Below are positions 7,927 through 39,580 of a DNA stretch of 55,202 nt, in pieces (the first letter of the stretch is position 1; each line of letters opens with the position of its first letter). This stretch comes from Candidatus Coprovivens sp. (GTDB lineage: Bacteria > Bacillota_I > Bacilli_A > RF39 > UBA660). The DNA lies in contig JBJFGS010000014.1 in NCBI GenBank assembly GCA_051892935.1, positions 25,982-81,183 of the forward strand. The letters run 5' to 3'. The translations under genes were made by a program, and so were the position numbers. The notes under the pieces were generated by a model that saw only the letters and a program-made list of their open reading frames with translations, searched no databases and had not been told where the DNA came from.

Positions 7927-8065
7927 AATTCCACCCTCACTTCCTAGCATAACAAAATTCCACTATAAAATTAAAATAATAGCGGCATTCTTCAAAAACT
8001 AATTGTCAAAGTAAAAAGTCTATTTAAGTATACAATTAATTATTAAGTATTTCAAGTAACAAAAT

Positions 8066-8095: not shown

Positions 8096-8458
8096 TTAAT
8101 AATTACTTTGTTCAGCAAATGGAGTAAAAGGACTAGGATTAGTAGAAGCATTTTCTACATTAGCTCCAGCATTAGCGTTTTCTTCTTCAATAGAAGCAAC
8201 AATTTTATTAAGTTTATCTTTAAATGCTCTTTCTTCTTCATCTTCATAACCTAAGAAGAAAATCTTATCAATTTGATCATGATCGAATAAGCATACTTGA
8301 TTGGAACTTAAGTAACCTTCTGGATAAACACAACCACTATAGTCATAAATCTTTTCTTGATTTTCTTGAGCTACTGAACAAAAACCAGTAATCATAGCTC
8401 TTTTTCTTCCACCTTTTAATAATACAACAGTACCAATTGGTAAATATTTTTCTTTCAT
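8096..8458 (-). CDS. DUF4176 family T7SS-associated protein
   Basis: LPIGTVVLLKGG...MITG...YDYSGCVYPEG...FDHDQIDKIFFLGYED signature. Confidence 0.9.
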   Translation of the reverse strand: MKEKYLPIGTVVLLKGGRKRAMITGFCSVAQENQEKIYDYSGCVYPEGYLSSNQVCLFDHDQIDKIFFLGYEDEEERAFKDKLNKIVASIEEENANAGANVENASTNPSPFTPFAEQSNY

Positions 8459-8479
8459 TTTAATCCTCCTATTATTCTA

Positions 8480-10708
8480 TTACATATTTACAAATAATTG
8501 ATTTATTAATGACTGATCAGAAGCTTCATTATTTTGTGGATCACTAACTCCATTCATGTTACCTAAATTATCTGGAGATGTTTGAGCAGTGCTTCCATTA
8601 TTTGGAGTAAATCCAGTTTGAGATTGAGCCATTTTTCTAATTTCATCATAATATTCATCTTCAACTTTTTGTAAATTAACCTTAGCTTCAGAATAAGCAA
8701 CCTTAGCTTTTTCAGCAGCTTCAACTTCTTCATTTGCTTTAGTAACAGCTGTGTTATAAGACTCAACAGCTTCATTATATTTTTTAATTTGATCTTCTGT
8801 CCATTTAGATGTATCGGTTCCAGATACACTTTCAATAGATGATTTCAATGTATCTAAATCACTCTTAGCTTTAGTAGCATCCTCTATATATTTATTGGCA
8901 TTTTCAACAGCAGTTGAATAAGCAGTTCTAGTACTTTGAACTTCTGCTTTAGCAGCAGTTACAGCCTCACTAGTATATGGTGAAGTCAATTCAATTTGAG
9001 CATCACCATCAAATAAGTCTGTGTAATCAGGAGCATCATCATAAGAAGTATCAAACGTATCTGAAATACCATATTCCTTAGCAAAATCTTGAGCAATTTG
9101 CGTAAGTTCTTGATTTTGAGATCCTAACATAAACGCTGCAAGTCCAACATCTTTATTAGTAGCAGCAGCAAGAGCTTCCTCTGGACTATATCCCATTTCA
9201 ACAAATTTGTTAACTAAGTCATCTTTATTTTCTTGATTAAATAATCTTTCAAACTCTTCCATATCAGCACGCCTACGTTCTGCTAAATCCTCAGGAAGAG
9301 AATATTTATCATAGAATTCATCTCTAGCAAGAGCATCAATATCTTCATCAGTAAACTCTAATTCAACTTTTTGTTCAGGTAATTTTTCTTCAACTATATC
9401 AACAATTTCTGGAGTTGATGGACTAGGTGAACTACCTGGATCACTTGGTGAACCACCAGGAGAACCACTAGGAGAACCGCTAGGAGTACCACTAGGAGAA
9501 CCACCAGGAGTAGTTGGTGTACTAGGCCAATCAGGTTTTTCTTCTGTAGGAGTAGTTTCTCCTTCTGGCGCAGTATCCTCTTCTGGAGTTGTTTCTTCCT
9601 CAGGAGTAGTTTCCTTTTCATTTTCGTGTTCTTCAGCAATTTCTTTAGCTTTTTCCTCAGCTTTCTCTTGTCTAGTATTCATATCTTCGGTATTTTTATC
9701 AGCATGAAGAGCCTCGGTTCCTCCCTCTTTATACATACCAAATCCAATACCTGCAGCAGTAGCAACACCACCAGCAATTATAGAATTAACGCCAAGAGTA
9801 TCAAAAATATCTTCATTAAAGCCATGATTTTTCATGAAATCATCTAATTCATCTTTATACTTTGAAACAATTTCATCAGCCGACAAAGTAATACCTGCTT
9901 CTTTAAGCAATCTATCAATATTACCATCAGAAGCAACAGAATAAAAACCTTTACCAAGTAATTGATAAACACCATTACCAAGACCAGCAATATAATTACT
10001 TTTTAATTTAGCTCTTTCATCTGGATCAGTAATCCCCATTTGATCAAGCATATATTCATCTGCAATAGTACCAGCTAAAGCAGTACCAGTATAAGAGAAG
10101 AATGCATTAACCATTTCAGCAATAGTAAACTTATTACCATCACCATCAATATAATAAACAACATCAATAGAAGTTCCATCTTCCAAAGTAATAGCTTGAA
10201 CATCAATATTAGCACCAAGCTCACCAGATATAGCTTCAATTACAGCTTGAAGAGATATTTCAGCAGCAGATCCTTCAAAAGTATTAACAGCATTCTCTAA
10301 AGCAGTCAATAAAGTTTGAACAGAATTTAGTCTAGTATTTGCTTCACCAGTTACTTTATTGCAATCACTAACAGCAGAATCAGCATACCCTCTATATGCA
10401 GCTCTATCAGCGGTAATTGCAATCTCATTAGCTGTAACAGCTTCAGAATGTGAACTATAAGTACCACTAGCCCATTTAGCTGTAGAATAATCATAAACAT
10501 ATGAAACAGTTCCATCACTATTATCTACTCTTTTATCGTGATCCGTAACATCATTTTTGTAAGTTTCTACCCAGTTTTCAGATATACTATAAGCAGAATT
10601 TTTAAAATTAGTAACACAATTATCAGAGCTAGTAACCATAGGAAGTGCAGAAGATATTTTTCCTAAACAAACACCTTTTTTACCAATATTATATTTAACA
10701 AATCCCAT
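8480..10708 (-). CDS. Large putative T7SS substrate, cassette 1 (helical N-terminus, Gly/Ala hydrophobic segment, P/S/G/E linker, coiled-coil C-terminus)
   Basis: 742 aa, no signal peptide; N-terminus VKYN parallels VKFD/LKFD of the 803 and 706 aa proteins; same cassette position. Confidence 0.6.
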   Translation of the reverse strand: MGFVKYNIGKKGVCLGKISSALPMVTSSDNCVTNFKNSAYSISENWVETYKNDVTDHDKRVDNSDGTVSYVYDYSTAKWASGTYSSHSEAVTANEIAITADRAAYRGYADSAVSDCNKVTGEANTRLNSVQTLLTALENAVNTFEGSAAEISLQAVIEAISGELGANIDVQAITLEDGTSIDVVYYIDGDGNKFTIAEMVNAFFSYTGTALAGTIADEYMLDQMGITDPDERAKLKSNYIAGLGNGVYQLLGKGFYSVASDGNIDRLLKEAGITLSADEIVSKYKDELDDFMKNHGFNEDIFDTLGVNSIIAGGVATAAGIGFGMYKEGGTEALHADKNTEDMNTRQEKAEEKAKEIAEEHENEKETTPEEETTPEEDTAPEGETTPTEEKPDWPSTPTTPGGSPSGTPSGSPSGSPGGSPSDPGSSPSPSTPEIVDIVEEKLPEQKVELEFTDEDIDALARDEFYDKYSLPEDLAERRRADMEEFERLFNQENKDDLVNKFVEMGYSPEEALAAATNKDVGLAAFMLGSQNQELTQIAQDFAKEYGISDTFDTSYDDAPDYTDLFDGDAQIELTSPYTSEAVTAAKAEVQSTRTAYSTAVENANKYIEDATKAKSDLDTLKSSIESVSGTDTSKWTEDQIKKYNEAVESYNTAVTKANEEVEAAEKAKVAYSEAKVNLQKVEDEYYDEIRKMAQSQTGFTPNNGSTAQTSPDNLGNMNGVSDPQNNEASDQSLINQLFVNM

Positions 10709-10720
10709 TAATCACACCTC

Positions 10721-10954
10721 CTATCCACCATATTTCGAAGCAATAGCTTCCATCGGAGCACCATACTTACTAGGAAGGGTAGTTTTTGCTCCCTCTATTT
10801 CATCAATTACTGTTTGCAAATATTCTTGAACTTTTGACCACTGATCATTGGTTTGAGCTAAAACTTCATTATTACAACTACTTTTAACTGTTTCAATAGC
10901 CTCAGATAATCTTCTTAAATTTTCAGTTGTATCATTAAGTGTACCATAATCCAT
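10721..10954 (-). CDS. Small helical-hairpin protein (putative T7SS partner), cassette 1
   Basis: 77 aa with GGAG RBS; two amphipathic helices; directly precedes the large substrate. Confidence 0.6.
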   Translation of the reverse strand: MDYGTLNDTTENLRRLSEAIETVKSSCNNEVLAQTNDQWSKVQEYLQTVIDEIEGAKTTLPSKYGAPMEAIASKYGG

Positions 10955-10968
10955 TTATATCATCACTC

Positions 10969-13353
10969 CTAATCTTTCCATTCTGTACGTTGATCAAGTA
11001 ACTGATCATATGATATAAATCCACCAAAATAGGTATCAGAAGTATCATAAGAACCATTACTATTTACAACATAATATCCATTTGCATCAGAATCATAAAC
11101 CAAATATTTTCCACTATCTCCACCAGAAATAGTATTATCATAAGTATCCCAAGGTTTATCATAAGTAATTTCTTGACCAGGAGCTAAATATATAACATCA
11201 GGTTTTTCAGCAGTTCCTGAATACAATGCACCTCTATCTATTGAATCTAGTGTCGCTCTATTACTATTTAAATAGTTCGTATCATAAGTAACATACGAGG
11301 TGCCAACATTATTTTTATTTACATTATCAGTAAAAGAAGTATTTATTTCTGTTCCCACAGAAGTATAAGGAGATGTACCATTATTAAAAGTTTCATTCCA
11401 TTGAACATCCAAATTTTGTCTATAACTATTAACGAAATCAGTTCTAGAAACAATATCACCATTAGAGTAATTAGTATATGGAACCAAATTACCATTTTCA
11501 TCTAAAACATGAACTTGAGCATTTGGGTCAGTGGATAAAGTATAATATCTTTTTCCATCATGTCCCATCAAGAAATAGGCATTTTTTCCATTGATATTAA
11601 CTGCTTGTCCTGAAGAAACTGTAACTCTTTCAGCAGTTGTTTCTGCAGTTGGAGCACTAGTTGGAGCCTCAGTTGGAGCTTCAGTTGGAGCCTCAGTTGG
11701 AGCTTCAGTTGGAGCTTCAGTTGGAGCTTCAGTTGGAGCTTCGGTTGGAGCTTCGGTTGGAGCTTCGGTTGGAGCTTCGGTTGGAGCTTCAGTAGGAGTT
11801 TCACCAGTAGTTCCACCATCTTGAGTACCTTCATCTTTCAACGAACCATCATCGTTAAATGTTCCAGGATTATCAATTGGCTTACCATCTTTGTCTTCAT
11901 ATTTTACATTGCCATCAGGTGTAACAGTAGCTTTATTACCATTTTTATCAGTACTTACAACTTCTGTCACAGCACCATTTGCATTACGTTTTGTTTCAAC
12001 AGAAGTAGTATTTCCCTCAGCATCCTCAGTAGTAACTTTATGAGTAGAGCCACTAGAATTAACCGTTGTTTCAGTAGTAGTTGAACCTGTTTTAGTACCA
12101 CTTTCATCGTAAGTAGAAGTAGTTGAAGTAGTTTTATCTCCGTTAACCTCAGTTACAGTTTCTTGACTACCAGTTACATTACCATCATTGTCAGTAGTAG
12201 TTACAGTAACCGTTGTTGTAGAACCAACAACATTTCCCTCAGCATCTGTAATATCCTCAACTTGACGAGTAGTAACTTCTGTTGCAGTAGTAACATTTCC
12301 AGCACCATCATCAGTAGTAATAGTTTTAACAATAGAATTATAACCAGTAACATTACCAGCTGCATCCACAACAGGTACACTATATTCATAAGATTCAGTA
12401 GTAGTTACACCATTTTCAACTGTAGTAACACTTTCAACCAATCCATTATCATTATACTTAGTTTCTTGAGAATAAGTAACAACGCCATTTTCTTTAGTTT
12501 CAACTTTAACAAGATTTCCATTGCTATCATAAGTATTTTCCGTTGAAGATTTAACATTACCAGCTGCATCTTTAACTACAGTAGAAACAAGTCTTCCATT
12601 TTCATCATAAGTATTATTAGTAATAGTAGTAACTCCACCTACAACAGATGTAATAGCAACAATACGTCCAAAATCATCAAACTCAGTAGTAGTTTTTTCA
12701 AGAACATTTTTACCCTCAGCATCATATTTTTCAACAACTAACTGACCATCATCAGTATAATATGATTTTTCAATACCAATTACATTGCCATTAGCATCCA
12801 ATGTTTTAACTATATAATTACCATCTACATCGAAATAAGAAATGGTCTTATTGCCCTTACCATCATCTCCTACAATAGCATTGTCATCATTAAGGTCCTC
12901 ACGTAGAGCATAACCTGTCGCATAATTAACACCATTAGCAGTAGCAGAAATAGTTAGTGCATTATCACTAATCTTTCTATTATTATAAATATCGCTAGCT
13001 ACATTGGTAAAATCAGAATTCTTGGCAGTTATTACTGCTATAGCAGCAGACCACTTTTCAAAATTAGCATTAAATTCATGAAAAGTAGATGCATTTTCTT
13101 TCCATAGGTTTATCAATAAATTACCATGTTCACCGAAAACACAATGTTCACAGCTAACATTAACATCAGAAATAACTCGATCATTTGCTTGTTTTAAAAT
13201 ATCGGCAAAATCATCAAAACTACCCTGTAATGTAGTTATATTAGCTTTAAGTCCCTCTAAATTAAAAACTCTCTCTTCATTAGCAGAATCGAATTCTCTC
13301 TTTTCATATTTTATATCACTATCACCAGTAGGTGTATCAGCAACGCTTGCCAT
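10969..13353 (-). CDS. WXG100-like 'B' domain fused to YD/RHS-like repeats, a (TEAP)n stalk and a C-terminal domain
   Basis: N-terminal FGEHGNLLINLW matches IGGKVGNLLFKEW of the 140 aa protein; YDENGRL, YDSNGNL and YNDNGL repeats; TEAP x11. Confidence 0.7.
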   Translation of the reverse strand: MASVADTPTGDSDIKYEKREFDSANEERVFNLEGLKANITTLQGSFDDFADILKQANDRVISDVNVSCEHCVFGEHGNLLINLWKENASTFHEFNANFEKWSAAIAVITAKNSDFTNVASDIYNNRKISDNALTISATANGVNYATGYALREDLNDDNAIVGDDGKGNKTISYFDVDGNYIVKTLDANGNVIGIEKSYYTDDGQLVVEKYDAEGKNVLEKTTTEFDDFGRIVAITSVVGGVTTITNNTYDENGRLVSTVVKDAAGNVKSSTENTYDSNGNLVKVETKENGVVTYSQETKYNDNGLVESVTTVENGVTTTESYEYSVPVVDAAGNVTGYNSIVKTITTDDGAGNVTTATEVTTRQVEDITDAEGNVVGSTTTVTVTTTDNDGNVTGSQETVTEVNGDKTTSTTSTYDESGTKTGSTTTETTVNSSGSTHKVTTEDAEGNTTSVETKRNANGAVTEVVSTDKNGNKATVTPDGNVKYEDKDGKPIDNPGTFNDDGSLKDEGTQDGGTTGETPTEAPTEAPTEAPTEAPTEAPTEAPTEAPTEAPTEAPTEAPTEAPTSAPTAETTAERVTVSSGQAVNINGKNAYFLMGHDGKRYYTLSTDPNAQVHVLDENGNLVPYTNYSNGDIVSRTDFVNSYRQNLDVQWNETFNNGTSPYTSVGTEINTSFTDNVNKNNVGTSYVTYDTNYLNSNRATLDSIDRGALYSGTAEKPDVIYLAPGQEITYDKPWDTYDNTISGGDSGKYLVYDSDANGYYVVNSNGSYDTSDTYFGGFISYDQLLDQRTEWKD
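11651..11794. repeat. 12-bp coding tandem repeat encoding (TEAP)11 plus TSAP
   Basis: GGAGC(T/C)TC(A/G)GTT x11 plus one degenerate copy. Confidence 0.95.
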
Positions 13354-13365
13354 AAAAATACCTCC

Positions 13366-13674
13366 TTATCCTATTGCAGCGAAAGCAGCATTAACTTCAC
13401 TTTCAAGTGTTGAATAATAACTTCCGCCAGTTTGCCCTTCTAGAATTTCTGCATAAGCTTTTAATATTAAAACCAAAGTATCCAAAGAAGATTTAAATCC
13501 TAAACATTCATTCCAAAAAGTTGTATAACTTTCATCATACCAATTTTCCTTAATACCATTTATATTGCTGTATATTTCAGCAATTTTAGCTTCAACTTTA
13601 CTAGCATAACCTTTTAAATCCCCGGCTAAAGCCACTAGTTTTTCACTATCAGCAGCAAAATCATACATATTCAT
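13366..13674 (-). CDS. WXG100 family protein ('A' type, WxD variant)
   Basis: About 100 aa helix-turn-helix with NWYDESY at the WXG position; shares YDF..D..KL and LKAY with 22699-23004; true start may be ATG 13668. Confidence 0.8.
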   Translation of the reverse strand: MNMYDFAADSEKLVALAGDLKGYASKVEAKIAEIYSNINGIKENWYDESYTTFWNECLGFKSSLDTLVLILKAYAEILEGQTGGSYYSTLESEVNAAFAAIG

Positions 13675-13766
13675 CCCTCCTGTACTTCAAGTACATTATA
13701 AATAAAAGATTTCCATCTTTTACTTATAATATACTGCGTGTTAACGCAGTACATAAATTTAAGAAA

Positions 13767-14078
13767 TTAACCTCTTTGAGAGTAAATTCCTTGAGTAGTT
13801 GACTCAGCAGCTGTACTTCTTTTAGCGATAGTTTCAGCTCTGTTCATAAATGAATTAACATTTGTTTTTAAATTTTGATATGCTGTTTCATTTTCTGCTT
13901 CGAATGTTTGTAAAGCAAGTGCACCAAGTGAACCAGCCATTGCAGATCCAGCTCCACTTAATTGACCTGTTACTCTTTCACGTTCAGAATTAAATGCAGA
14001 ACATGATTCTTCGATTGATTGAGCAGCTTTTTTTAAAGCAGCAGTAGCAGCTTCGGCGTTAAAGTTTTCTGTTGCCAT
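13767..14078 (-). CDS. WXG100-like protein ('B' type)
   Basis: 103 aa helical hairpin with central AMAGSLG; FN start motif shared with other B proteins. Confidence 0.7.
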   Translation of the reverse strand: MATENFNAEAATAALKKAAQSIEESCSAFNSERERVTGQLSGAGSAMAGSLGALALQTFEAENETAYQNLKTNVNSFMNRAETIAKRSTAAESTTQGIYSQRG

Positions 14079-14125
14079 ATAATCAGTCCTTTCTGTATTG
14101 TATTTTTATTAATTAATATCATTAA

Positions 14126-14434
14126 TTACATTGTTGCTGTTTTAACGTTATCAGCACTATTTGAAGCCATTTCATCTTCTACCATTTGATTTTGGTTAAT
14201 AAAATGGTCAGCAGTAGCTAGATATTCTTCAGCAGGTTTAACAACTTCATTTTCGAATGTTACAAGTAATGCTTCAGCAGTAGTACCACTCATACCTGTA
14301 GCCAACAATTCATCTCTTAATGTTGCTTTAGTATTTTCAAAAGATTCAGATTGTTTATTTCTTGAAGTTTGTAAATCACTAATAGCTGTTTGGAATTCAC
14401 TTTGTTTATATCTAAAGTTGTCCATATTTGACAT
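14126..14434 (-). CDS. WXG100-like protein (MSG at the WXG position)
   Basis: 102 aa helical hairpin with central GMSGTTAEA; immediately downstream of esaB. Confidence 0.7.
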   Translation of the reverse strand: MSNMDNFRYKQSEFQTAISDLQTSRNKQSESFENTKATLRDELLATGMSGTTAEALLVTFENEVVKPAEEYLATADHFINQNQMVEDEMASNSADNVKTATM

Positions 14435-14445
14435 AAATTCACCTC

Positions 14446-14703
14446 CTATAATAGTATTAGTTTTGTACCATTTAAAATGTTGTTTTCCAAAAATGTATTA
14501 TCAACATTATAAACAGTACCATCTTCAGCATTTATTAATGATAAATGTTCACTCATGGCGTACGCACCATCTGTCATATCATTAATAGCTTTATTTAATA
14601 AGAATATAATTTCAATAGTCTTCTTATTAACAGGAATAAAAACATTGTATCTTTCTTCAATGCCAGGTACAATCAAATCTACACAGACTTTATTATGATT
14701 CAT
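14446..14703 (-). CDS. esaB: EsaB/YukD-like ubiquitin-fold T7SS protein
   Basis: 85 aa; YNVFIP...I..LL...TFLENNILNGTKLILL pattern; adjacent to essC. Confidence 0.75.
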   Translation of the reverse strand: MNHNKVCVDLIVPGIEERYNVFIPVNKKTIEIIFLLNKAINDMTDGAYAMSEHLSLINAEDGTVYNVDNTFLENNILNGTKLILL

Positions 14704-14804
14704 AATAAAACCTCCTATTAAATATCGTAGATTTAAGAATATATGATAGCCTTACCATTTCCGAACCAATTCCCCATTACTATTCACTACACTCTTATAT
14801 AACC

Positions 14805-14833
14805 ATAATACTCTAATTCAAAATCAAAGTCAA
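14805..14833 (-). promoter_or_regulatory. SigA-like promoter of the esaB-WXG100 operon
   Basis: TTGACT-N17-TATTAT just downstream of the essC terminator. Confidence 0.65.
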
Positions 14834-14842
14834 CGAAAGTTA

Positions 14843-14875
14843 AATAAAAAAGACAATAAAATCGTCTTTTTTATT
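14843..14875 (-). terminator. Intrinsic terminator after essC
   Basis: AAAAAAGAC..GTCTTTTTT hairpin. Confidence 0.7.
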
Positions 14876-17800
14876 AAAGCGTTTCATACACTTCCTCTTC
14901 ACCCAATTCAGAAATATATTTAACAAGAACTGTCGTATTTCCATCCACATAATATCCAAAATTCTTATCAAGTTTAGCACCTAATATTCTAGAAGATAAT
15001 GTAGATTTTAAGGTGTATTGAGTACTTATTCCGTTACCAATCCAAATACCTTTGGTACCAGAAATAGTATCTTTATACCAGCTATCAAATTCACGTTTCT
15101 TAAAGTTATCGCAAGTATCAATTAGTACAAAATGCATCTTAGGCATAGATTTAACCATTGAAACAAGCCCACTGTAAGCTCCATCAAATTCACTACCTAA
15201 AACATTTTTAAACTTTTCAAGTCCAACTATAAAACATACATACTCGCCTTGTTCTTTTAAAACTCCAGCATCAAAACCGGCATCTTTATACTTATTAAAT
15301 GAATCAAAAACAAACTTACCAAAAGATTTAAAAGATTCCAAAATATTAGTATCATGATAAGTAACATAAGATTCATAATCTTTATATATTTTCTCTAAAT
15401 CAAATACATAACAATTCTTTCCTATAATGTTTGAAACTTCTTTAATGAATAATCCACCAAATGTTTTTATGTCATTAAGTTCCATACCAGTAATAATATG
15501 TACAAGGTTCTTAGTAAAATCAAGAGTTCTTACTCTTAGAGATTCTTTTTCAATTCCAACAGGAACAGCTTCTAAACCTTTTATATTATCAGCTAAATCA
15601 GCAACAGTAACAACTTCTGGTAATACAGGAACTTTTGGAGCACTATTTGGAAACTTAGTAGTCAACTCTTTTATTTTTTCCATAACAACAGTATTTAAAG
15701 TTTCTTTTTCAGCTGGTACAGCTGCTTGGAATTCATAAACAGCATCAAGTTTTACCAAACCTCTACCACTTATATCAGCAGGCTCAAGTTTAGTTCTAGC
15801 AAGTAATGAACTATAATCATACTTATCATTCATTTGGAATACTAAATGATTAGGTAAATATTGAGCTAATCTAGATCTGATACCATTTGATGTAGTAGAA
15901 GTCATTACAAAGTAAACACCATATTTTTGACAATCACGTGTAATTGTCGCTAGTAAATCAAATGTAGCATCTCCATAGTTTTCATTATACAATTCAAAAC
16001 CATTTATAATTACTAATATATTTGGTAAAACCTTACCAGTAGCTTTTGAATAAGATATATAATCTCCACCATAGTCAGCAAACATTTTCTTTCTACCTGC
16101 AATCTTTTCAGATAACATTCTCCATAAATTAGTTACTTTATCAGAATCATTTTGTAAAATAACATCTCCAACTTGAGGAGCTTTTCTATATATTTTTAAT
16201 GTTTCTGCACCAAAATCCAATAGATACATATTTAACTCCATAGGAGTATATGTAGTAATACAAGAATATACTAATGAATTAATCATTTCTTCTTTACCAC
16301 TATCTGCCATACCATAAATAATCCAGTTACCACCTTGGGTAATAGGCAATGTAAGCAATCCTTGTTTTTGCAAGTTTGGTGCATCATATTCACCAATAAC
16401 AGGATTAATATCACAATCAATTTTTCTAAAACTATATTTTTCTTTCAAACCATCAATAAAAATAATTGGTGCCAAAGAATTAAGCCATAATTGTTTAATA
16501 GTAATACTTTCTTTTTTAGCTATTTCAACTAAATATTTCATTATATTAGGTAATTCTTCACCTTTTAAAACACCAGTAAAGTTTTGTTTTCCATCATCAA
16601 CTATCTTAAAAGGCATTCCTAAATTATCAACAAAGGTTATTGTATTATCAACTTTTTTCTTTCTAACATCCGATTCATAATATGGCGCACCTGTCCAAGC
16701 AGATTGACCTAATGCAAAGTATTCATCATAACCAACTTGTAAATAGAATCTACCTGTTTCTTTAATAGAAGCAGCATCTGGTCTTTTAATCATTTCTTGA
16801 CTATCCGAACGATCTTGTACCTTTAAACAAACTTTAAACTTAGAGTTTGCCCAAATTTGATCATTAACTACACCACTAGGCTTTTGTGTTGCTAAAATCA
16901 AGTGAACTCCTAAAGAACGACCAATACGTGAAGCAGAAATAAGCTCGTTCATAAAATCAGGTTGTTGTGCTTTTAATTCAGCAAACTCATCTGAAATAAT
17001 AAACAAATGAGCAACTGGTTTATCAACCTGACCACTTCTATATAGTCGTTGATATTTATATATATCAATAGTAGATTCACCAACTTTATCTCTAGCTTTA
17101 TTAAATACAGCTTGTCTTCTTTTTAACTCAGATTGCAAAGAAGCTAATGAACGATTAATTTCTGAAACATCTAAGTTCGTAATTGTACCTGCCAAATGAG
17201 GTAATTTTAAACCAGTTTCTCTGTTTTCAAAAGCACCAGCTAGCCCTCCACCTTTATAGTCAATTAAAACAAATTGAACTTCATAAGGATGATAATTTAA
17301 AGCTAAGCTTAAAATGAAAGTAATAATAAATTCTGATTTACCTGAACCAGTCATACCAGCAACTAAACCATGAGGTCCATGAGCCTTTTCATGTAAATCT
17401 AATTTAAACAAATCACCATACTCATTAATACCAATAGGTGCCGCAAGAGTATTAATTGGATCACTTTCTTTCCAACGTGCTAATGCATTTAATTGGTTAA
17501 CATTTGAAACATTATACATTTCCAAAAAAGAATATGTAGAAGGTAATTGAAACTTACCACCATTTAAAGCAATAGGAATATTAGATACAACATAAGCATA
17601 TTTTTCTAATGAACCATACATAAAATCAGGAACGAAATTAATTCTCTTACTATCAGTAAGCACTCTTTCAAATACTCCACCAGTTCTTTCATCAACACTA
17701 ATAAAATGTTCTACTTCATTTGGTAAAGAGTTTAATTTTTCAGTAAATATTAATAAACTAATACCAACATATTCTTCTGACTCAATCAATGAACGAATTA

Positions 17801-19541
17801 AACTAACATTTCTTACTAAGTCAATATCATCAGTAATAACCAAATATCTAGTAGGTAATTTAGCACTCTCTTTATTACTAGAAGCACCTCTTTCTTGATT
17901 AGCTTCCCTTATTGCACTTAACATTTCTTCAAAATAAGAACTAATTTGATTGATTTCATCACTATTAGTACCAAAAAATCTTAAAGTTCTTTCATCATTC
18001 CAAAAATATGGACAATCTTTTATATCTTCCCAAAACTTTTCTTGTTCCCTATTAGTAAAAACACATACCTTTAATGAGTCATATCCATGATAAGCAAAAA
18101 TTTGTAATAACAAACCTCTTAAAAACGGATTAGTAACATTTTTATTACCTATGACAGCAGTAATATACTTATTAACAAAAGAATAAGTAACAGGAACGTT
18201 TTCAAGCATACTAGTTTCTTTTTCAAGTTCTCTTAAATATCCCATCAAATTATCTTCATCATCCATTGAAAAGTGTTCATCCGGATAATTAATTGTAAAA
18301 AATGGTGGTATCGCACCAATACCTAATCTTAAAGATAAAAAATCATAATCACTAATATTCTTTTCCCATAAATTACGTTTTTTATAAAGAATAATATCAC
18401 CAACATCTTTTAACGGAATATACTTATCAATTAAAATTTGTTGTTCCTTTTTCATTTCTGTTAAAAACTCTTCACGTTTTTTATTAACATACATACTATA
18501 AGTGGCTTGTCTTTTTCTTTCATAAATTCTTTTTTTATGTTTAGTATACATCTTACTTAAAGTAGGTAATACTAACATACATGTCAACATTGCCCCGGCA
18601 GTAAGTAAAGAAGGCCATGCATCAGATAATTTTTGATTACCATTTAATACATTTGTCAATGTTATGACTCCTGTCATAACAGAACTCATACCCATCATCA
18701 TCATAGAACCCATTGTAAAAATTGCTGGCATTTCATCTTGATTTTGAGCAGATGGTGGTGGATCTATAACCAATACTTTTTCCTCTATTTTTTCATCAAA
18801 ACGTGGTGGCTTCAAAAAATAGTCTTCTTTTTTATACATTTCAATAACAGCATCAGGTTCATTTGATATTTTAGAATAATCTAAAGTAGGAATTTGCCTT
18901 AATGAAAACACTTGAGAATCAAATTTAACTAATTTATTAGGATTATTAACATAAAAAATATCATTAATAATAGTTAACTTAAATCCAAGCATAAAAATAT
19001 TATCACCATTTTTTAAATCAGCACTATCACAAGGAATTCCATTAATATACATCGGTAAAGCTGTATTTAAATTATATACAGAATATCTTCCTGAATTATA
19101 AGCAATTTTTAATTGATTTCTTGCAATACCAGGCTGTTCATATGAAATAATATTTGGATAATTAGACGCATTATCTTGTGAACCATTGTTACCAATATAC
19201 CATGCCGAAGAATTCTCCATATTATTAAAATTCATTCTAAGTTGTAAAGAGTTTTCATCATATACCGGACAGGTATAAATCACATAACTTTGACCCAATA
19301 AAATATTCTTTAAAGTATAAAATTTTTCATTTTCAATCAAGGCTTCATCTACTGCAGTACCATTTCTAAAAACCTTAACCTCACTATTACTTTTCAATAC
19401 CCAATTATTATCTATAGCTTGAACACCAACTAAATTTTCTTTATCAGCATTAACAATCCAATAATTACCAAATATTTCATTAGGAAGTATCAAATTAACA
19501 AGTTTAGTAGCATCCATTAACATAATTTTCATACCGGCCAC
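14874..19541 (-). CDS. essC: Type VII secretion ATPase EssC (FHA-like N-terminus, 2 TM, FtsK/SpoIIIE domains)
   Basis: [59 protein letters not shown] and YLLDFG motifs; second and third ATPase domains degenerate. Confidence 0.96.
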   Translation of the reverse strand: [1555 protein letters not shown]

Positions 19542-19594
19542 ACTCCCATATTCTATATAAAATTATATCTTAAATATTATTTAATTACAATACA

Positions 19595-19626
19595 AAAGGA
19601 TTCTATTTTTATAATAAGAATCCTTT
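19595..19626 (-). terminator. Intrinsic terminator after cassette 2
   Basis: AAAGGATTCT..AGAATCCTTT hairpin. Confidence 0.6.
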
Positions 19627-19634
19627 ATACTACA

Positions 19635-22046
19635 CTATTTCTCAGAAGTACTATTATATTGCTCACCATATATTATTTCTTCCGCAGATTGAAACTCCTT
19701 TGGCTCAGAAACTTTTTCTTGTTCATCTTTTACATCTTCAACAATTATTTCTTCACTTATTATTGTAGCATCATCAGGAGGAGTTATTTCATTACCATTT
19801 TCATCAACATATACTATTTCTTCTTGATATATAACATTTTCTTCTGAATCAGTTGGAGAAGTAGTTTCTTCCAACTTTTCTTTTTTATCTTCTTTATTAA
19901 TTTTTTCTATTATAATTAATGATTCTAATTTTCTTCGTTCTTTTCCTTTTTTTATTCTAAACGTTGTATAAAATAGAATAATCGCCAAAACTAATAGAAC
20001 AAAAATAAGAATACTAATAACATCGAATAATTTCAAGGCCAAAGTAAAAGCAAATACACTGACTGAAACACCAGTAGCTACTTTAACTTCTTTCTCATTT
20101 TTAGCGATTAATTCAGCGTATGAAGAATCACCTAATATTCCACCAGGAGCATCTACTCCTAATTGTTTATCCATATCTTCTACTCTTAATTGTTCTTGTT
20201 TTTCTACATCGATATCTGTTCCTCTAGATTTAGCATTAGCAGGAGCACCATTATTAGAACTTCCTTTTCCTAAAGTATCAGATTTCATAGTTGAAGACTC
20301 TGTTGAATGTGTAGAAGTAGCAACATTAGAATTACTTGCAGAAGCACTATTAGTACTATTACCTGAACTTGAAATAAAGCCAGAATTTGTTGCAGAAGAA
20401 GAATAACCACCAGAAGAACCTCCACTTTGCGAAATAGTAGACATCGAACTTCCATAATCAACCGCTGGAGCTGAAGAGCCCAAATTAGGAACAGAAGCAC
20501 TAGATATTGGAACATCAGGCGTAGAAATACTACCATTGTTACCACCAAGAATAACAGAAGCACCCAAGCCCGCAGCACCTACAATAGCACTACTACTCTT
20601 CAATTCGTCACTATCTAACTTAGGAAGTTCAATTTTACTATCTCCACTACTTTCAGATTTTAAAGTAGGATTATTCTTCTTGATTATAGGAACATCTGGC
20701 AACTTAGAAGGCTTATCATCAACACTAACTACTGAATCATTATTCTCTTCACTTATTTCAACCTTTTCATTAGGTTCATCATTTATTTCTTTATTAACAT
20801 CTTGACTAGGTGAATCTTGTTGCGGCTGATTAGCAGAAGATGTTTGATTATTTTGTTGTGTCTGTTTAGAAGAAGATGTCTGATTATTTTGTTGCGTTTG
20901 ATTATTTTGTTGTGGTTTTTCTTGTTTTCCCGAAGGAGGATTCGATTTTTCATTCTGCGAATCGTTTGGAACACTAGGCTTAGCTTTATTATTTACAGCC
21001 ACATCAGCAACATCATTAGCACCATTTTTAGCACTATCAGCTATAGAAGATCCAATATCAAATTTTCCTTTTTCATCATCATGTCCAGATTCATCATCTT
21101 TTTTATCAGCATTTTTATCTAAAACAAGCTTAGTAACACCTGCAACAGCACTACTAAATGATAAAATAGAATCTTCTAATTTACCCAAAGAAGCATCAAC
21201 CCAGCTTCCATCATCTTCTTTATTTCCCAAAATATCTCTGTACTTAGATTCTCCCTGAAATGGTAATATACCATCCTCCCAAATTTTACCTGAAGAAGAA
21301 AAAATATCATCTTTAAATTTTTCTTCACATTCTTCTTTCAAAATTTGTCCAAAAGGAGTACTAAACAATGAAGACAATTGTACCGATAATAAATCGCCAA
21401 CTTTTATTCCATCAACAATAATATCTCCATTATCATCTATTCGATCAGACAATCTATCAAAGAAATAAGTCATAAAGTCAGACACAGTCACATTTTCTCT
21501 TTCGCTATCACGATTAGATAAATTAGCAAGACTCGTCCAAACTTTTAAACTATTATAAGAATCATCTCTATATAAAGAACTAGAATCATCCAATAAAGAA
21601 TCACCAAATAATCCATCACCCTTTAATGAAGACAAAGTACTAGCTGAACCATATTTATCCAAAAAAGAAAAAACACCATTAGAAACTCCAGCTTCACTTT
21701 CAATAGATACATCATTTTGATTTTCAAATTGTTCAATCAATTTAGTAATACTTTTTAATGCCGATATTACCTTAGATATACTATTTGAAACACTAGAACT
21801 AATATCATTAACCTTTTTATAAGCGCTATCTGCTTCACTATTATATATTCTAGCCTTAGAAGTAAAATCAGCTATAAGTTCATTTTCTTCGTCAAAAACC
21901 TTTAGGAAACTACTATTAAGATTCACTTTATTATTAGCAAAATATGTAGCCATACCACTTAATGTAGAATCGATATCTTTTCTAATATTAGTTAAATTAT
22001 CTACTGCGCTTTGAGCTAATTCCTTATCAAATTTTACATATGCCAT
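19635..22046 (-). CDS. Large putative T7SS substrate, cassette 2 (helical N-terminus, S/Q/N-rich spacer, C-terminal TM hairpin, acidic tail)
   Basis: 803 aa, no signal peptide; MAYVKFD...ATYF N-terminus; two TM helices near the C-terminus. Confidence 0.65.
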   Translation of the reverse strand: MAYVKFDKELAQSAVDNLTNIRKDIDSTLSGMATYFANNKVNLNSSFLKVFDEENELIADFTSKARIYNSEADSAYKKVNDISSSVSNSISKVISALKSITKLIEQFENQNDVSIESEAGVSNGVFSFLDKYGSASTLSSLKGDGLFGDSLLDDSSSLYRDDSYNSLKVWTSLANLSNRDSERENVTVSDFMTYFFDRLSDRIDDNGDIIVDGIKVGDLLSVQLSSLFSTPFGQILKEECEEKFKDDIFSSSGKIWEDGILPFQGESKYRDILGNKEDDGSWVDASLGKLEDSILSFSSAVAGVTKLVLDKNADKKDDESGHDDEKGKFDIGSSIADSAKNGANDVADVAVNNKAKPSVPNDSQNEKSNPPSGKQEKPQQNNQTQQNNQTSSSKQTQQNNQTSSANQPQQDSPSQDVNKEINDEPNEKVEISEENNDSVVSVDDKPSKLPDVPIIKKNNPTLKSESSGDSKIELPKLDSDELKSSSAIVGAAGLGASVILGGNNGSISTPDVPISSASVPNLGSSAPAVDYGSSMSTISQSGGSSGGYSSSATNSGFISSSGNSTNSASASNSNVATSTHSTESSTMKSDTLGKGSSNNGAPANAKSRGTDIDVEKQEQLRVEDMDKQLGVDAPGGILGDSSYAELIAKNEKEVKVATGVSVSVFAFTLALKLFDVISILIFVLLVLAIILFYTTFRIKKGKERRKLESLIIIEKINKEDKKEKLEETTSPTDSEENVIYQEEIVYVDENGNEITPPDDATIISEEIIVEDVKDEQEKVSEPKEFQSAEEIIYGEQYNSTSEK

Positions 22047-22052
22047 AATTCA

Positions 22053-22271
22053 TCAACTCCAAAACTTTTTTTGTGCATTCATATTTGAAACATTTTTTTC
22101 TAAATCTGCTATTCCATTATTCAATTCGTTCACAGCTTTATTAATTTCTCTTTTTAAATTATCAATAGAATTATTATCATCATCTAATAATGCTGAAGTT
22201 AAATAATTAGTTTGAGAAGATAATTCAGAACTCAAATCTTTTAAATTTTCTATTTTTTTACTTAAATTCAT
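22053..22271 (-). CDS. Small helical-hairpin protein, cassette 2
   Basis: 72 aa, overlaps the upstream stop by 4 nt; amphipathic helices. Confidence 0.6.
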   Translation of the reverse strand: MNLSKKIENLKDLSSELSSQTNYLTSALLDDDNNSIDNLKREINKAVNELNNGIADLEKNVSNMNAQKKFWS

Positions 22272-22690
22272 AATAACTCAGCTCCCCTATGATCATTTTC
22301 GCTATTTTTACCCTTTAAACTATCATTTAAAGGAACAGCATTATCAAAAGTTGGTGATTTATAAACTCTTTCTATTGTTTCAGCAGTTTCAGAAGAACGA
22401 TTATAAATACTTCTCATCGTTTCACTTGTATCGCTAAAAAACCTTGAATAATTCAATAGAGGAACACAATTGTCCATCCACTCTTTAAAAAGAAGATTAC
22501 CCACTTTTCCTCCGATTGCTCCAGATGATGTTTGTATATTTTCAGCAACTAAAGAATCCATAGATGAAATAGATTCAAAAACTTCTTTGCCTAATAAATC
22601 AAACTCATCTATCATTTTCATAACTTCAGTTGCATTAAAAGTTTCTATAACTTCAATAGTACGAGGACTATTTTCATTACCAATTGCCAT
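22268..22690 (-). CDS. WXG100-like protein ('B' type)
   Basis: FNATEV...GAIGGKVGNLLFKEW; paralogous to the other B proteins. Confidence 0.7.
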   Translation of the reverse strand: MAIGNENSPRTIEVIETFNATEVMKMIDEFDLLGKEVFESISSMDSLVAENIQTSSGAIGGKVGNLLFKEWMDNCVPLLNYSRFFSDTSETMRSIYNRSSETAETIERVYKSPTFDNAVPLNDSLKGKNSENDHRGAELL

Positions 22691-22698
22691 ATTATCAC

Positions 22699-23004
22699 CT
22701 ACCCTAGATCACATACACTTACAATATCAGAACACAAAGTCGATGCTGAATCTTCAATCTTTGAAAGTATATCCTTATATGCTTTAAGATATGCTAAAGC
22801 AACATCATAAGACTTAGCACTAGTATCATACTTACTTTTTAAGCTATTATATGCTTCACCAGACCATTTAGCATCAACATCACCTTCGCCAAAAAAAGAT
22901 TTCAATTCACTAACATCTTCTTCTAAAGTTTGATAATAACTATCTAATCCTGTAATCAAATCTTCCAATTTACCAGTATCTACAATAAAATCATATCCTG
23001 ACAT
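22699..23004 (-). CDS. WXG100 family protein ('A' type)
   Basis: KWSGEAY canonical WxG, about 100 aa; ATG 23004 follows a GAGGT RBS. Confidence 0.87.
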   Translation of the reverse strand: MSGYDFIVDTGKLEDLITGLDSYYQTLEEDVSELKSFFGEGDVDAKWSGEAYNSLKSKYDTSAKSYDVALAYLKAYKDILSKIEDSASTLCSDIVSVCDLG

Positions 23005-23065
23005 ACTACACACCTCGACTATACTATATACATAATATCATCATTTTCTTATTTGTTCAACAAAC

Positions 23066-35355: not shown

Positions 35356-37476
35356 TTAATTAAAGAACTTTTTATCATTATTATCTTTAGTTAATTTAGA
35401 ATCATCACTATAACCATTTTTTATTTGGTCAATTATTTTTTTCTTAACATCTTCTTCATTATTAACTATAGGTTTAGAATTAAATTTTAAATTGCAATAA
35501 TCATATATATTCAAACCTTTTTTACGTTCTTGCTCATTTTGTTCTTCTAATTTAGCAATACCAAAATAATTATAAGCAAAATATCCAGCTATTATCAAAA
35601 CAACAAGTATTAAATTAAGAATCCAATGTGTAATATCAAAAACACTTAACAATCCTACAAAACCAATTGCAACTATTCCAACAACAGCTGGAACATAATC
35701 AAACATTGGCAATATTCTTTCAAACAACTTAGTAAAGTAATAATATAAGAACACAACTACTAAAACGGCAAACGCAATTACATAAGACAAAGTAGGAGCC
35801 ACATCTAAACAAGTTAATAAATATATTAAGAATTGATTAACTAATAAAGCACATACTGTATAGAACTTACCAAGTTTTACTCCCATAGTAGTAATAACAG
35901 CTGTTATAGCAATTGATAAACCAATTAATACAATAGTTACATTAGTAGTAATATTTAATATTGAAGCTATTGAATTAGCAATTATTAAAATAGTTAATAA
36001 AACCATTGAAATAATAGTACCAATCCTTCTCTTTTTATATTGCTCAGGAGTTAAAGAAGAATCATCATCATATTCATAATCATATACTCTTACTCCATCA
36101 TTTATTTCATCCTTAGTGCGTTTCATAGTTGCAGCAGCATTTGCTGCAGCAGCACCAACAGCAGCCATTCCTCCAATTGCCAAACTAGCTGATGAAACAT
36201 TTTTATCTAAATCTAAATCTAAAGAATCAACAGCATTTTCTTTATCAGGACCATCCAACATTCCAAGGAATGCATCTTCAGCCATCTTAAATTTTTGTGA
36301 ATTAATAGCATCAGCAAATGTACCATCTAAGAATGGATAAATAACATTTCCATTTTCATCGTAATACATAATATTACCATCTTCATCAACCATCATTTTA
36401 CCCTTTTTCAACAATTCATTTATGAAATCGATATCAGAACTATTAGTACCATATTCGTAACCAGGAATAACATTTTTATCTGGTTTTCCATCGCCATCAG
36501 TATCAACATTAATATCTGGAATACCATCTCCATTTAAATCAATATTAATATCAGCATATCCATTTCCATCAGAATCAATATTTAAATCTGGTTTTCCATC
36601 GCCATTTGTATCTATATTAATATCAGGAATACCATCTCCATTTGTATCCACATTTAAATCTGGTTTTCCATCGCCATTTGTATCTATATTAACATCTGGA
36701 ATACCATCTCCATTTGTATCAATATTTAAATCTGGTTTTCCATCGCCATTTGTGTCTATATTAACATCTGGAATCAAATCGCCATTTGTGTCAATATTTA
36801 AATCTGGTTTTCCATCGCCATCAGTATCTATATTAACATCAGGAATTTTATCGCCATTTGTATCAATATTTAAATCAGCTACGCCATCACCATCAGTATC
36901 AACATCAACTTTTGGAGATTCAGTTGGAGTTGTATCACTAGTATCATCACCAGTACCATCGCCATCTCTAACAGTTGGATCTTCAACATCAATTCCAGAA
37001 CCATCTCCAATTCCCAAACCACTACCAACTCCAGCTAAATCAACAGGGACTTCTGGAGGAACATCCAATCCTCCAACAATAGCATCATAATCTGGAGGAG
37101 CTGATGGTAAAGATTCATAATTTAAAACTGCAGCTTCAATATTTTTAACTTTCGTATCAACAGATGTTACATTAGAATTAATAACCTCCGATGCAGCACG
37201 CATTCTTTGAAGATTAGTTCTAGCATTAATTAAACTGTTACCATAATTATTCATATAATAACTATAATTTTCGTTTGTTAAAGATTCTATTTCGTTTCCA
37301 TAATCATCAGTCTCTATAGACATTTTTCTTACTTTAGCTTGTACTTCTTCCGCAGTAGGCAAATTCCTATAATAAGTAGCTAAAGAAGATGTAGCAGAAG
37401 ATATCTTTGTTTCAGCTGTTTCTAATTTTGATATAATATCACTACAAACAGAACCATCAAATTTCAATTTAGACAT
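35356..37476 (-). CDS. Large putative T7SS substrate, cassette 3 (helical N-terminus, 12 Ca-binding-like repeats, 6 TM C-terminus)
   Basis: 706 aa, no signal peptide; MSKLKFD...ATYY N-terminus; DTNGDGKPDLNI repeats; six hydrophobic helices. Confidence 0.7.
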   Translation of the reverse strand: MSKLKFDGSVCSDIISKLETAETKISSATSSLATYYRNLPTAEEVQAKVRKMSIETDDYGNEIESLTNENYSYYMNNYGNSLINARTNLQRMRAASEVINSNVTSVDTKVKNIEAAVLNYESLPSAPPDYDAIVGGLDVPPEVPVDLAGVGSGLGIGDGSGIDVEDPTVRDGDGTGDDTSDTTPTESPKVDVDTDGDGVADLNIDTNGDKIPDVNIDTDGDGKPDLNIDTNGDLIPDVNIDTNGDGKPDLNIDTNGDGIPDVNIDTNGDGKPDLNVDTNGDGIPDINIDTNGDGKPDLNIDSDGNGYADINIDLNGDGIPDINVDTDGDGKPDKNVIPGYEYGTNSSDIDFINELLKKGKMMVDEDGNIMYYDENGNVIYPFLDGTFADAINSQKFKMAEDAFLGMLDGPDKENAVDSLDLDLDKNVSSASLAIGGMAAVGAAAANAAATMKRTKDEINDGVRVYDYEYDDDSSLTPEQYKKRRIGTIISMVLLTILIIANSIASILNITTNVTIVLIGLSIAITAVITTMGVKLGKFYTVCALLVNQFLIYLLTCLDVAPTLSYVIAFAVLVVVFLYYYFTKLFERILPMFDYVPAVVGIVAIGFVGLLSVFDITHWILNLILVVLIIAGYFAYNYFGIAKLEEQNEQERKKGLNIYDYCNLKFNSKPIVNNEEDVKKKIIDQIKNGYSDDSKLTKDNNDKKFFN
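36469..36900. repeat. 36-bp coding repeat x12 (Dx(D/N)GDG Ca-binding-like)
   Basis: 12 units of D(T/S/L)(N/D)G(D/N)x(K/I)PD(L/V/I)N(I/V); alternating KPDL and IPDV give a 72-bp superperiod. Confidence 0.92.
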
Positions 37477-39548: not shown

Positions 39549-39580
39549 AAAAAAATACATCTATTAGATGTATTATTTTT
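39549..39580 (-). terminator. Intrinsic terminator
   Basis: AATACATCTA-T-TAGATGTATT hairpin plus T-run. Confidence 0.6.

Follow-up and report, generated by a model that had tools for sequence, protein, structure and literature searches.

How few parts can a Bacillota secretion system of type VII (T7SS) consist of, and what would such a system carry? The question is raised by a stretch of 55,202 nucleotides (hereafter the window) from Candidatus Coprovivens sp., assembly GCA_051892935.1, contig JBJFGS010000014.1, positions 25,982 to 81,183 of the forward strand (G000:C14:25982-81183 in our numbering; G+C content about 28%, one window end coinciding with the contig end). It encodes the ATPase EssC, a ubiquitin-fold protein EsaB and repeated four-gene cassettes, whose members we call A, B, S and L, in a genome of 1.81 Mb on 53 contigs that is 92.2% complete. 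We propose that the locus is probably a lineage-specific, reduced derivative of T7SSb, in which EssC and EsaB constitute the machine, the A-B-S-L modules are accessory and the large L proteins are cargo that anchors itself. The new element is the family-wide reduction of T7SSb; partner-assisted export of large T7SSb substrates is already known.

All relevant T7SS genes of the window lie on the minus strand. In the direction of transcription, thrS (23126-24892) is followed by A1, B1, S1, L1, EssC, the EsaB-like gene, X102 and X103, and then by A2, B2, S2, L2, a DUF4176 gene, a UvrD-type helicase gene, two further genes and infC-rpmI-rplT. With thrS on their 5' side and infC-rpmI-rplT on their 3' side, the T7SS genes thus form an island within the usual thrS-infC neighbourhood. 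A third set is located downstream of glmS (35356-40405), where the pair Y125/Y147 precedes A3, B3, S3 and L3. The third cassette proper (35356-39425) is 12.3 kb away, in agreement with the original prediction of a further copy at about 12 kb, and the extra A/B-like pair occupies 39573-40405. The predicted combination of EssC, EsaB and DUF4176 was confirmed as well, but two genes of about 100 amino acids (aa) between EsaB and A2, X102 and X103, had been omitted. The features, with open reading frame abbreviated as ORF and hidden Markov model as HMM, are:

22699..23013, minus strand: A1, WXG100-like, 104 aa from a GTG start; an ATG lies at 23004, where the originally predicted locus ended
22268..22690, minus strand: B1, partner protein of 140 aa, an ORF that matches the B2 N-terminus (blastp E 0.019)
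22053..22271, minus strand: S1, 72 aa, predicted to lie along the L1 hairpin
19635..22046, minus strand: L1, 803 aa, with a predicted N-terminal helical hairpin and domain of about 150 aa, an S/N/Q-rich linker, a hydrophobic anchor at residues 656-694 and an acidic tail with a conserved motif
14874..19541, minus strand: EssC, 1555 aa, with predicted tandem FHA-like domains (about residues 1-215), two hydrophobic segments (about 275-330) and FtsK/SpoIIIE ATPase domains
14446..14703, minus strand: EsaB/YukD-like protein of 85 aa, assigned by a family HMM and a modelled beta-grasp (ubiquitin) fold
14126..14434, minus strand: X102, an ORF of 102 aa at the position of the WXG-like pair of relatives
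13767..14078, minus strand: X103, 103 aa, the second ORF at that position
13366..13674, minus strand: A2, WXG100-like, 102 aa (PF06013 22.4 bits, cut-off 27.3; hhalign probability 93 to the f3 family)
10969..13353, minus strand: B2, 794 aa, whose B-like N-terminus is joined to YD/RHS repeats, a PT linker and a C-terminal domain of about 200 aa without a family
10721..10954, minus strand: S2, an ORF of 77 aa with only coiled-coil noise in Pfam
8480..10708, minus strand: L2, 742 aa, whose features are the N-terminal motif, a globular stretch that is conserved, a hydrophobic segment of glycine-zipper type, a linker rich in acidic residues and PT, and a conserved domain at the C-terminus
8096..8458, minus strand: DUF4176 protein of 120 aa (PF13780 98.4 bits), candidate chaperone of L2
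40028..40405, minus strand: Y125, extra WXG100-like protein of 125 aa (TIGR03930 26.5 bits, PF06013 24.7 bits; match to A3 E 7e-10)
39573..40016, minus strand: Y147, extra B-like protein of 147 aa that matches B3 (E 2.7e-4), with a syntenic 146-aa gene in locus L050
38190..39425, minus strand: A3, 411 aa, with a WXG100 N-terminus (PF06013 35.9 bits, over the cut-off) and an extension of about 310 aa
37832..38179, minus strand: B3, partner protein of 115 aa (blastp to Y147 E 2.7e-4, to B2 E 0.001)
37487..37726, minus strand: S3, an ORF of 79 aa without a family assignment
35356..37476, minus strand: L3, 706 aa, with the N-terminal motif, D-x-D-G-D-G repeats of the calcium-binding type, a glycine zipper and, at the C-terminus, six membrane segments

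The two machine parts are assigned at different levels. EssC passes the T7SSb equivalog model TIGR03928 (966.5 bits, cut-off 778.4, residues 241-1541), and its closest solved structure is Bacillus subtilis YukB (9qks, aligned residues 313-975). Residues 1-250 gave no match by sequence. Folded together with 22 relatives in AlphaFold2, this N-terminus yields two beta-sandwiches (predicted local distance difference test score, pLDDT, 87.6) with EssC FHA structures as top Foldseek matches (5fwh, 9qks_H, 1wv3); on this model it is a tandem FHA region. The 85-aa protein has no Pfam match of its own, and its profile retrieved nothing below E 0.3 among the sequences of solved structures. Its family alignment gives a ubiquitin-like beta-grasp model (pLDDT 95.4) that matches ubiquitin-like domains including EccD of ESX systems (TMq 0.76-0.78), weak YukD matches occur in 7 of 19 family members, and the family HMM finds the gene in 18 of the 20 relatives' loci sampled and also in L047, a locus of another family. 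By its modelled fold, the protein is EsaB. Judged by the WXG100 criterion of T7SSb, i.e., the PF06013 cut-off of 27.3, A3 and one member of a pair on contig C24 (33.1) lie above, and A2 and Y125 below.

The genome also has another EssC gene (1532 aa, 35% identical), with an EsaB gene of its own, directly after rpsF-ssb-rpsR (G000:C24:131181-151180, L003). Downstream of this EsaB are two proteins whose N-termini are WXG-like (299 and 266 aa), four small genes and a protein of 2397 aa; a Pfam scan of the genes after EsaB assigned none of them to a family. No recognisable membrane partner was present among the 13 genes scanned at this second locus either.

The core unit of the B. subtilis system is composed of YukB, YukC and YukD (PMC12637312). 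Profile scans revealed no gene for EssA, EssB or EsaA in the window, as originally predicted. Across the genome, YukC/EssB (PF10140, TIGR03926) and the EsaA N-terminus (TIGR03929, the only EsaA model searched with) gave no match at E <= 1, and the best EssA match had 15.8 bits (cut-off 24.1). The same holds for 151 genomes of the source organism's family, chosen as one per genus and 0.6-1.8 Mb in size. EssC is present in 62 of them, YukC and the EsaA N-terminus exceed their cut-offs in none, and EssA does so in two, marginally (24.2 and 25.5 bits) and both times inside ORFs of 550-592 aa, so that nothing convincing over cut-off was found for any of the three. Sub-threshold matches to the EsaA N-terminus (47-71 bits, in ORFs of 593-719 aa) occur in ten family genomes, of which four have EssC and six do not; in the former they are on another contig or 37 kb from essC. 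As a control, YukC is over cut-off in all 14 genomes outside the family that have a full-length EssC in a class-level sample of 300, and in 14 loci from 13 of these genomes EssC is immediately preceded, on its upstream side, by a YukC-sized ORF (233-402 aa). Where YukC is present, these tools recover it.

Two incidental points concern the host and its relatives. A wall-less host was considered as a reason for EsaA loss and discarded: the genome, like those of relatives, encodes MurA, MurD, a PBP5-type carboxypeptidase and SpoIIR. In-frame stops had been flagged for the EssC matches of six relatives; in the two that were checked (G021, G113) the ORFs are full length, and the flagged stop is therefore outside the gene.

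The origin of this EssC was addressed with a tree of 39 rows, in which the FtsK of this genome served as outgroup to 23 family-type EssCs, 14 YukC-linked EssCs and one additional EssC. All 23 family-type sequences form a single clade (Shimodaira-Hasegawa-like approximate likelihood ratio test, SH-aLRT, 100) on a stem of 1.11 changes per column. With the FtsK outgroup, the clade branches among the YukC-linked EssCs (support 93), and we therefore read the absence of the partners as secondary loss within T7SSb, and not as the mark of an old separate lineage. Of the original prediction of a "reduced or divergent T7SS subtype", the reduction stands and is family-wide, but EssC is no separate deep lineage; that prediction had itself listed an EssC nested among ordinary T7SSb ATPases as evidence against it, and this is the position obtained with YukC-linked EssCs and FtsK in the tree. 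A family-type EssC without YukC was also found in a genome of another family (G385; L047 = G385:C10:23000-42999), in the order EssC-EsaB-f3-f2, where f3 is a WXG-like protein of the Coprovivens family and f2 its conserved partner. Either the module was transferred between families or it predates the family.

Across the 20 relatives' loci, of about 20 kb each, only EssC and EsaB recur in blastp comparisons. A pair of WXG-like proteins of about 95 aa adjoins in eight of the 20; the genome's own best match to this pair is at C24:43397-44030 (E 1e-22 and 5e-21), the pair with one member over the WXG100 cut-off. X102 and X103 hold the corresponding position in the window. At E <= 0.01, X102 matches no Pfam family, nor does it show a relation to the f3, f2 and f5 profiles, against which X103 reached hhalign probabilities of at most 3.5. 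The other neighbours in the 20 loci are housekeeping genes (ribosomal proteins, tRNA synthetases, MurA, MurD, IF2, SpoIIR, PBP5-type carboxypeptidase). By the EssC of one relative (L021, G113:C9), at 1253-6959, two DUF285/BspA-type leucine-rich-repeat proteins of 644 and 1319 aa are encoded, surface proteins of another kind than the L proteins.

How does the locus compare with described systems? With T7SSb of Staphylococcus aureus and B. subtilis it shares an EssC that passes the T7SSb equivalog model, has YukB as its nearest solved structure and is predicted to carry a tandem FHA N-terminus, as well as a separate ubiquitin-fold EsaB/YukD, WXG100-like small proteins and DUF4176. Unlike in T7SSb, no convincing EssB/YukC, EsaA/YueB or EssA/YueC was found in the genome or in the 151 family genomes sampled, and the WXG-like proteins come in unlike pairs, where T7SSb has a single EsxA. 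T7SSc to T7SSj likewise are Bacillota systems built on an EssC-type ATPase, WXG100 proteins and usually a ubiquitin-like TsxB, with Lap-like partners by their substrates, and T7SSg is similarly sparse, consisting of A1, A2, B, C and L (PMC11217815). Extra parts described for T7SSc-j include the kinase TsxD, the PPM phosphatase TsxF, the FHA protein TsxJ (DUF6382), the EspG-like TsxG, the vWA protein TscE, the Ig-like TsxI, the DUF5050 protein TsgL and the AAA+ protein TsfV (PMC11217815). None of these was seen by essC in the window, at the second locus or in relatives, for which the Pfam scan covered 91 of the 94 neighbours on the same strand that have at least 130 aa, from a total of 171 same-strand genes within five genes of essC in the 20 loci. 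By its parts, the system thus fits none of T7SSa-j. Furthermore, the ATPases of T7SSc, g and h are described without FHA domains, which are predicted here. This separation from T7SSc-j is by the parts as described in PMC11217815 (Garrett, Higginson and Palmer 2024), which drew on RefSeq. A 763-aa AAA protein of the window (26485-28776) was considered as a TsfV-like part and dropped, the block that contains it being absent from that place in G144, a genome of the same genus.

The cassettes are related to one another to different degrees. The original prediction of the same gene order on either side of essC holds for the A proteins, which are homologous (blastp E 1e-5 to 7e-10; hhalign probability 86-97 to the A profile and to f3, with A1 at 97 against the A-family profile), and weakly for the B proteins (blastp E 2.7e-4 to 0.02), but homology of the S and L proteins could not be shown. 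The conserved f2 partner is matched by B proteins at hhalign probabilities of at most 33 (B3), so that, judged by sequence, the conserved WXG-like pair of the family resembles A clearly and B only weakly. S1-S3 and L1-L3 have no significant mutual similarity in blastp and profile comparisons, the L2 family profile scores L1 and L3 at probabilities below 1, and S1-S3 and the L N-termini show no relation to WXG-like profiles. The L proteins appear united by their layout and by an N-terminal motif, M-x-x-[VLI]-[KR]-[FY]-[DN], which exactly three of the genome's 907 ORFs of 250 aa or more carry (L1, L2 and L3) and which is retained in their homologues elsewhere. Among the short genes, S1 weakly matches its positional counterparts in L023 and L026 by phmmer (E 0.003 and 0.015), and the counterpart in L026 itself has a YwqH-like match (28.8 bits, E 1.6e-6, under the family cut-off of 33.7); counterparts of S3 occur at the same place in L050 (79 aa) and L086 (105 aa).

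The B protein downstream of essC had been taken for a small partner, which it is not: B2 is a 794-aa fusion with a B-like N-terminus, YD/RHS and PT repeats. Pfam recognises one RHS_repeat match (27.4 bits) and PT (32 bits). The YD-like stretch of about 300 residues is short for a full Rhs shell, and the C-terminal domain has no known family. A syntenic 514-aa gene in G144 is its counterpart (E 0.002).

Comparison with relatives indicates that the cassettes are accessory, fast-evolving substrate modules and not machine parts. In G144, whose EssC is 70% identical, thrS abuts essC, and cassette 1 is therefore absent. The downstream side is syntenic there: an A protein bearing an extension, the 514-aa B-like gene and a 141-aa gene are followed by a 721-aa homologue of L2, at only about 30% identity, and by DUF4176. 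The L1 N-domain was found in none of 150 other genera of the family. A conspecific metagenome contig (run X2) spans EssC-L1-S1-B1-A1-thrS and diverges by 2.9% over EssC and the C-terminal half of L1, by 13% over the N-terminal half of L1 and by 7.3% from the L1 N-terminus to A1. Cassette 3 is whole and downstream of glmS in two other genomes, L050 (L3 70% identical) and L086; these were the informative loci of a search with the L3 alignment, in which 78 of the 80 loci kept represent calcium-binding repeats in unrelated proteins.

Further WXG-like islands are scattered over C36 (38644-39280, 90201-91770, 111680-112978), C27 (47190-48477) and C39 (25361-26399), comprising gene pairs and one run of four such genes, and a second DUF4176 gene is located on C10 (22364-22684). 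These pairs and the second DUF4176 gene suggest a large repertoire of T7SS substrates for a genome of only 1.8 Mb.

Do the four proteins of a cassette act together? Co-folding of A1, B1, S1 and residues 1-125 of L1 scored 0.81, against 0.07 for the best of three controls; 51 of 78 solved complexes attained the mark used, as did 2 of 108 mismatched pairs. Runs agreed in at least 84% of contacts with partner pLDDT of at least 82, and the modelled L1 hairpin contacts S1 (residues 1-71), A1 (6-17 and 71-103) and B1 (61-75). The model supports the predicted helical bundle of L1, S1, A1 and B1. Like complexes of LXG proteins with Lap have already been solved, so that the pass indicates likeness and is not proof. 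For residues 1-330 of L1, the best Protein Atlas scores were 0.82-0.89 (below the 0.9 level), including LXG, WXG100 and T7SS_signal clusters, and are leads only.

The idea that the system has a substrate grammar of its own did not hold up, as the cassettes resemble known pre-secretion complexes of T7SSb, with LXG toxin, Lap partners and DUF4176 chaperone. EsaD with EsxB, EsxC and EsxD is a comparable substrate-partner system. Multi-partner complexes are known, such as the seven-protein TelE assembly (bioRxiv 10.64898/2026.03.12.711312). Similar to LXG-Lap loci, small helical genes lie directly upstream of a large substrate gene and are predicted to bundle with its N-terminal helical domain; in contrast to them, two of the partners (B2, A3) have long extensions of their own. 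DUF4176 proteins are described as chaperones for the disordered middle domain of LXG toxins, with a small form of 70-130 aa (PMC12478183). The DUF4176 protein of the window falls into this size class and is encoded among T7SS genes, L2 has a low-complexity middle region as have substrates of such chaperones, and all 6 DUF4176 genes, from five loci, border on an ORF of 700 aa or more. As in LXG/Ltc systems it stands beside a substrate with a disordered middle (PMC12478183), but here after the substrate gene and there between the lap and toxin genes.

On sequence evidence, L1, L2 and L3 are three unrelated families, each conserved end to end. The L1 family comprises 15 matches at E <= 0.001 among 1.84 billion representatives. 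Its 11 long homologues keep both ends, with a conserved N-terminus of about 270 aa and a variable low-complexity middle; a membrane segment lies 80-190 aa from the C-terminus in 10 of 11 and a conserved acidic tail motif in 8 of 11. L2 has three close metagenome homologues (55-59% identical), and the 721-aa gene of G144 could also be aligned. Neither family belongs to a Pfam family. The C-terminal membrane block of L3 is kept in 14 of 14 homologues (six segments in 12) and the N-terminal motif in 11; its D-x-D-G-D-G repeats recur in proteins named adhesins by their sources. The large proteins match no LXG model: PF04740 was absent from L1-L3 at E <= 0.01 and from their first 200 residues at E <= 1, and its best match genome-wide (16.8 bits, below cut-off) is to a WXG-like protein of small size. 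L1-L3 gave no match to a toxin family, nor is there a candidate immunity gene after any of them, the only small gene that follows being DUF4176. Together with the conservation of C-terminal modules within each family, these features would fit exported, self-anchored surface proteins better than swappable toxins. Part of the cargo is probably enzymatic (B2, A3 and large neighbours of EssC in relatives, among which endolysin-like and transglutaminase C-termini occur). The original description of the cargo as surface-like rather than toxin-like therefore suits L1-L3, but not the YD/RHS, endolysin-like and transglutaminase ends.

A different account would make L1-L3 membrane-damaging toxins of the TspA/TelE type, antibacterial or host-directed, exported with their helpers and inserting their C-termini into a target membrane, with immunity encoded elsewhere or achieved otherwise. 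We consider this unlikely, though by no means far-fetched. T7SSb toxins with glycine-zipper or hydrophobic C-termini are known, i.e., TelE (PMC10434224), TspA (PMC7456083) and LXG-T2 (PMC12955049), L2 and L3 have glycine-zipper stretches, and TspA and TelE likewise combine an N-terminal helical targeting region with such a C-terminal part. DUF4176 follows directly on L2, hydrolase- and transglutaminase-like ends are present on relatives' large neighbours, and, like toxin loci, the cassettes differ from strain to strain and from genus to genus. However, L1-L3 differ from LXG toxins in having neither PF04740 nor a recognisable toxin domain and in ending in membrane segments, and no candidate immunity gene stands beside any L gene, whereas TspA and TelE have dedicated membrane immunity proteins encoded adjacently. 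L1 and L3 look stably anchored on long stalks: their families retain the C-terminal module and a positive juxtamembrane stretch, the layout of a resident membrane protein and not of swapped toxin heads. The six membrane segments of L3 would be hard to deliver to another cell, and its repeats are those of surface adhesins.

That canonical partners or stand-ins exist and were missed, because they are too diverged, encoded away from essC or unassembled, is improbable in our judgement. The incomplete assembly (92%, 53 contigs) and the window's end at a contig end leave room for it, as do the ten sub-threshold EsaA-like matches and the retention of FHA domains in EssC, which bind EssB in T7SSb and contact YukC in B. 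subtilis (PMC11217815; PMC12637312). Yet incompleteness cannot delete one gene from 62 genomes, and with the same tool YukC was over cut-off in none of the 62 EssC-bearing family genomes against 14 of 14 outside. The EsaA-like ORFs are unlinked to essC and occur with and without it, and beyond EsaB and the WXG-like pair no non-housekeeping gene recurs in the 20 neighbourhoods.

It is very improbable that the L proteins are lineage-specific machine parts replacing EssB and EsaA, with a cytoplasmic N-terminal hairpin that docks WXG-like proteins at EssC: they are indeed membrane proteins encoded beside essC, L3 with its large exposed region and C-terminal multi-span block recalls EsaA, and the fold model has A1 and S1 bound by the L1 hairpin, but the L1 N-domain was found in 0 of 150 other genera, the upstream cassette is missing in G144, many relatives have EssC and EsaB and no L-like neighbour, L2 is far less conserved than EssC (about 30% against 70%), and calcium-binding repeats and S/T/P-rich linkers fit an exported region.

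We thus return to a reduced T7SSb with self-anchored cargo, which could operate as follows. Only EssC, with its FHA, two membrane-spanning and ATPase segments, and the ubiquitin-fold EsaB would be conserved as the machine, EssB/YukC, EsaA/YueB and EssA/YueC having been lost across the whole family. Each accessory module would supply a WXG100-like A, a partner B, a short S and a large L, and the N-terminal helical hairpin of L would assemble with S, A and B into an elongated bundle in the cytoplasm, to be recognised and exported by EssC as in LXG-Lap complexes. Until export, the middle of L2, disordered or hydrophobic, might be held by DUF4176. Two cassettes would have a partner that bears cargo itself, i.e., the YD repeats of B2 and the 310-aa extension of A3. 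In the least certain step, L1-L3 would, after export of their N-termini, stay anchored via their own C-terminal hydrophobic segments and display stalk-like linkers and N-terminal domains on the cell surface instead of acting as soluble toxins.

Several points weigh against this proposal. The outgroup branch of the EssC tree is very long (5.8), which leaves the root within T7SSb unsure, and the tree contains no reference TsxC sequences of T7SSc-j. The absence of the partners rests on HMMs, which a strongly diverged or distantly encoded partner would escape, and the persistence of the FHA domains points to some partner still being bound. S and L have no demonstrable homology across cassettes, and the bundle model, run without alignments and calibrated on pairs rather than on four chains, may mirror the solved LXG-Lap complexes. 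Export by a T7SS of proteins that end in one to six membrane segments is without tested precedent in the literature covered, the membrane-active LXG toxins TspA and TelE also have hydrophobic C-termini (PMC7456083, PMC10434224), and hydrolase-like ends are present on relatives' large neighbours. Finally, RNA-library contigs of run X17 (230-364 nt) map to B2, A2, EsaB/EssC, EssC, L1 and upstream of A1 and are only a weak hint of transcription; they are short and could be DNA carry-over. Joints in the read comparison, all with short sides (20-38 letters), were left out of account. Counts of promoter-like sites (115 against 95 +/- 11 in shuffles) and terminator-like sites (5 against 3.8 +/- 2.0) were uninformative for operon limits.

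The surroundings of the locus contain further features. The insertion between thrS and infC-rpmI-rplT (1608-24892) comprises the T7SS island, the helicase and two further genes, and essC of G144 likewise follows thrS. The lone UvrD-type helicase (5899-7950) has GajB-like matches of up to 63.7 bits in PADLOC, with no GajA-like gene in a downstream scan of five minus-strand genes (858-5797), and stands between the T7SS island and a Listeria-Bacteroides-repeat surface protein (4382-5797). Ribosomal protein L20 (858-1370) carries a C-terminal Rho_N/SAP-like extension at residues 137-170 (PF07498, 42.9 bits). Between der and thrS (25397-32011) lies a four-gene block of a DUF7192 protein, the 763-aa AAA ATPase mentioned above and a 457-aa and a 617-aa protein without assignment. 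PADLOC gave no match for this block, which is missing at the same position in G144 and may be a mobile or defence island.

In structural work on T7SSb, EssB/YukC is treated, along with EssC and EsaB/YukD, as the unit from which the channel is built. A lineage with EssC, including its FHA domains, and EsaB, but with no EssB, EsaA or EssA, would reveal which components transport really requires, and FHA domains retained without EssB pose the question of their alternative binding target. No description of an EssB-less T7SSb derivative was found in the literature, as covered without most subscription journals and the supplementary data of PMC11217815. The RefSeq-derived catalogue of types a to j would gain a subtype that is common in uncultured gut Bacilli. 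More tentatively, and with rather low confidence, the T7SS of EssC and EsaB alone may serve throughout the family as a Sec-independent route to the surface for proteins of the L1-L3 families, which have no signal peptide, are anchored C-terminally and would each be accompanied by a trio of WXG-like helpers. If the L proteins are indeed exported and anchored, type VII secretion would, beyond the release of toxins, also display membrane-anchored surface proteins.

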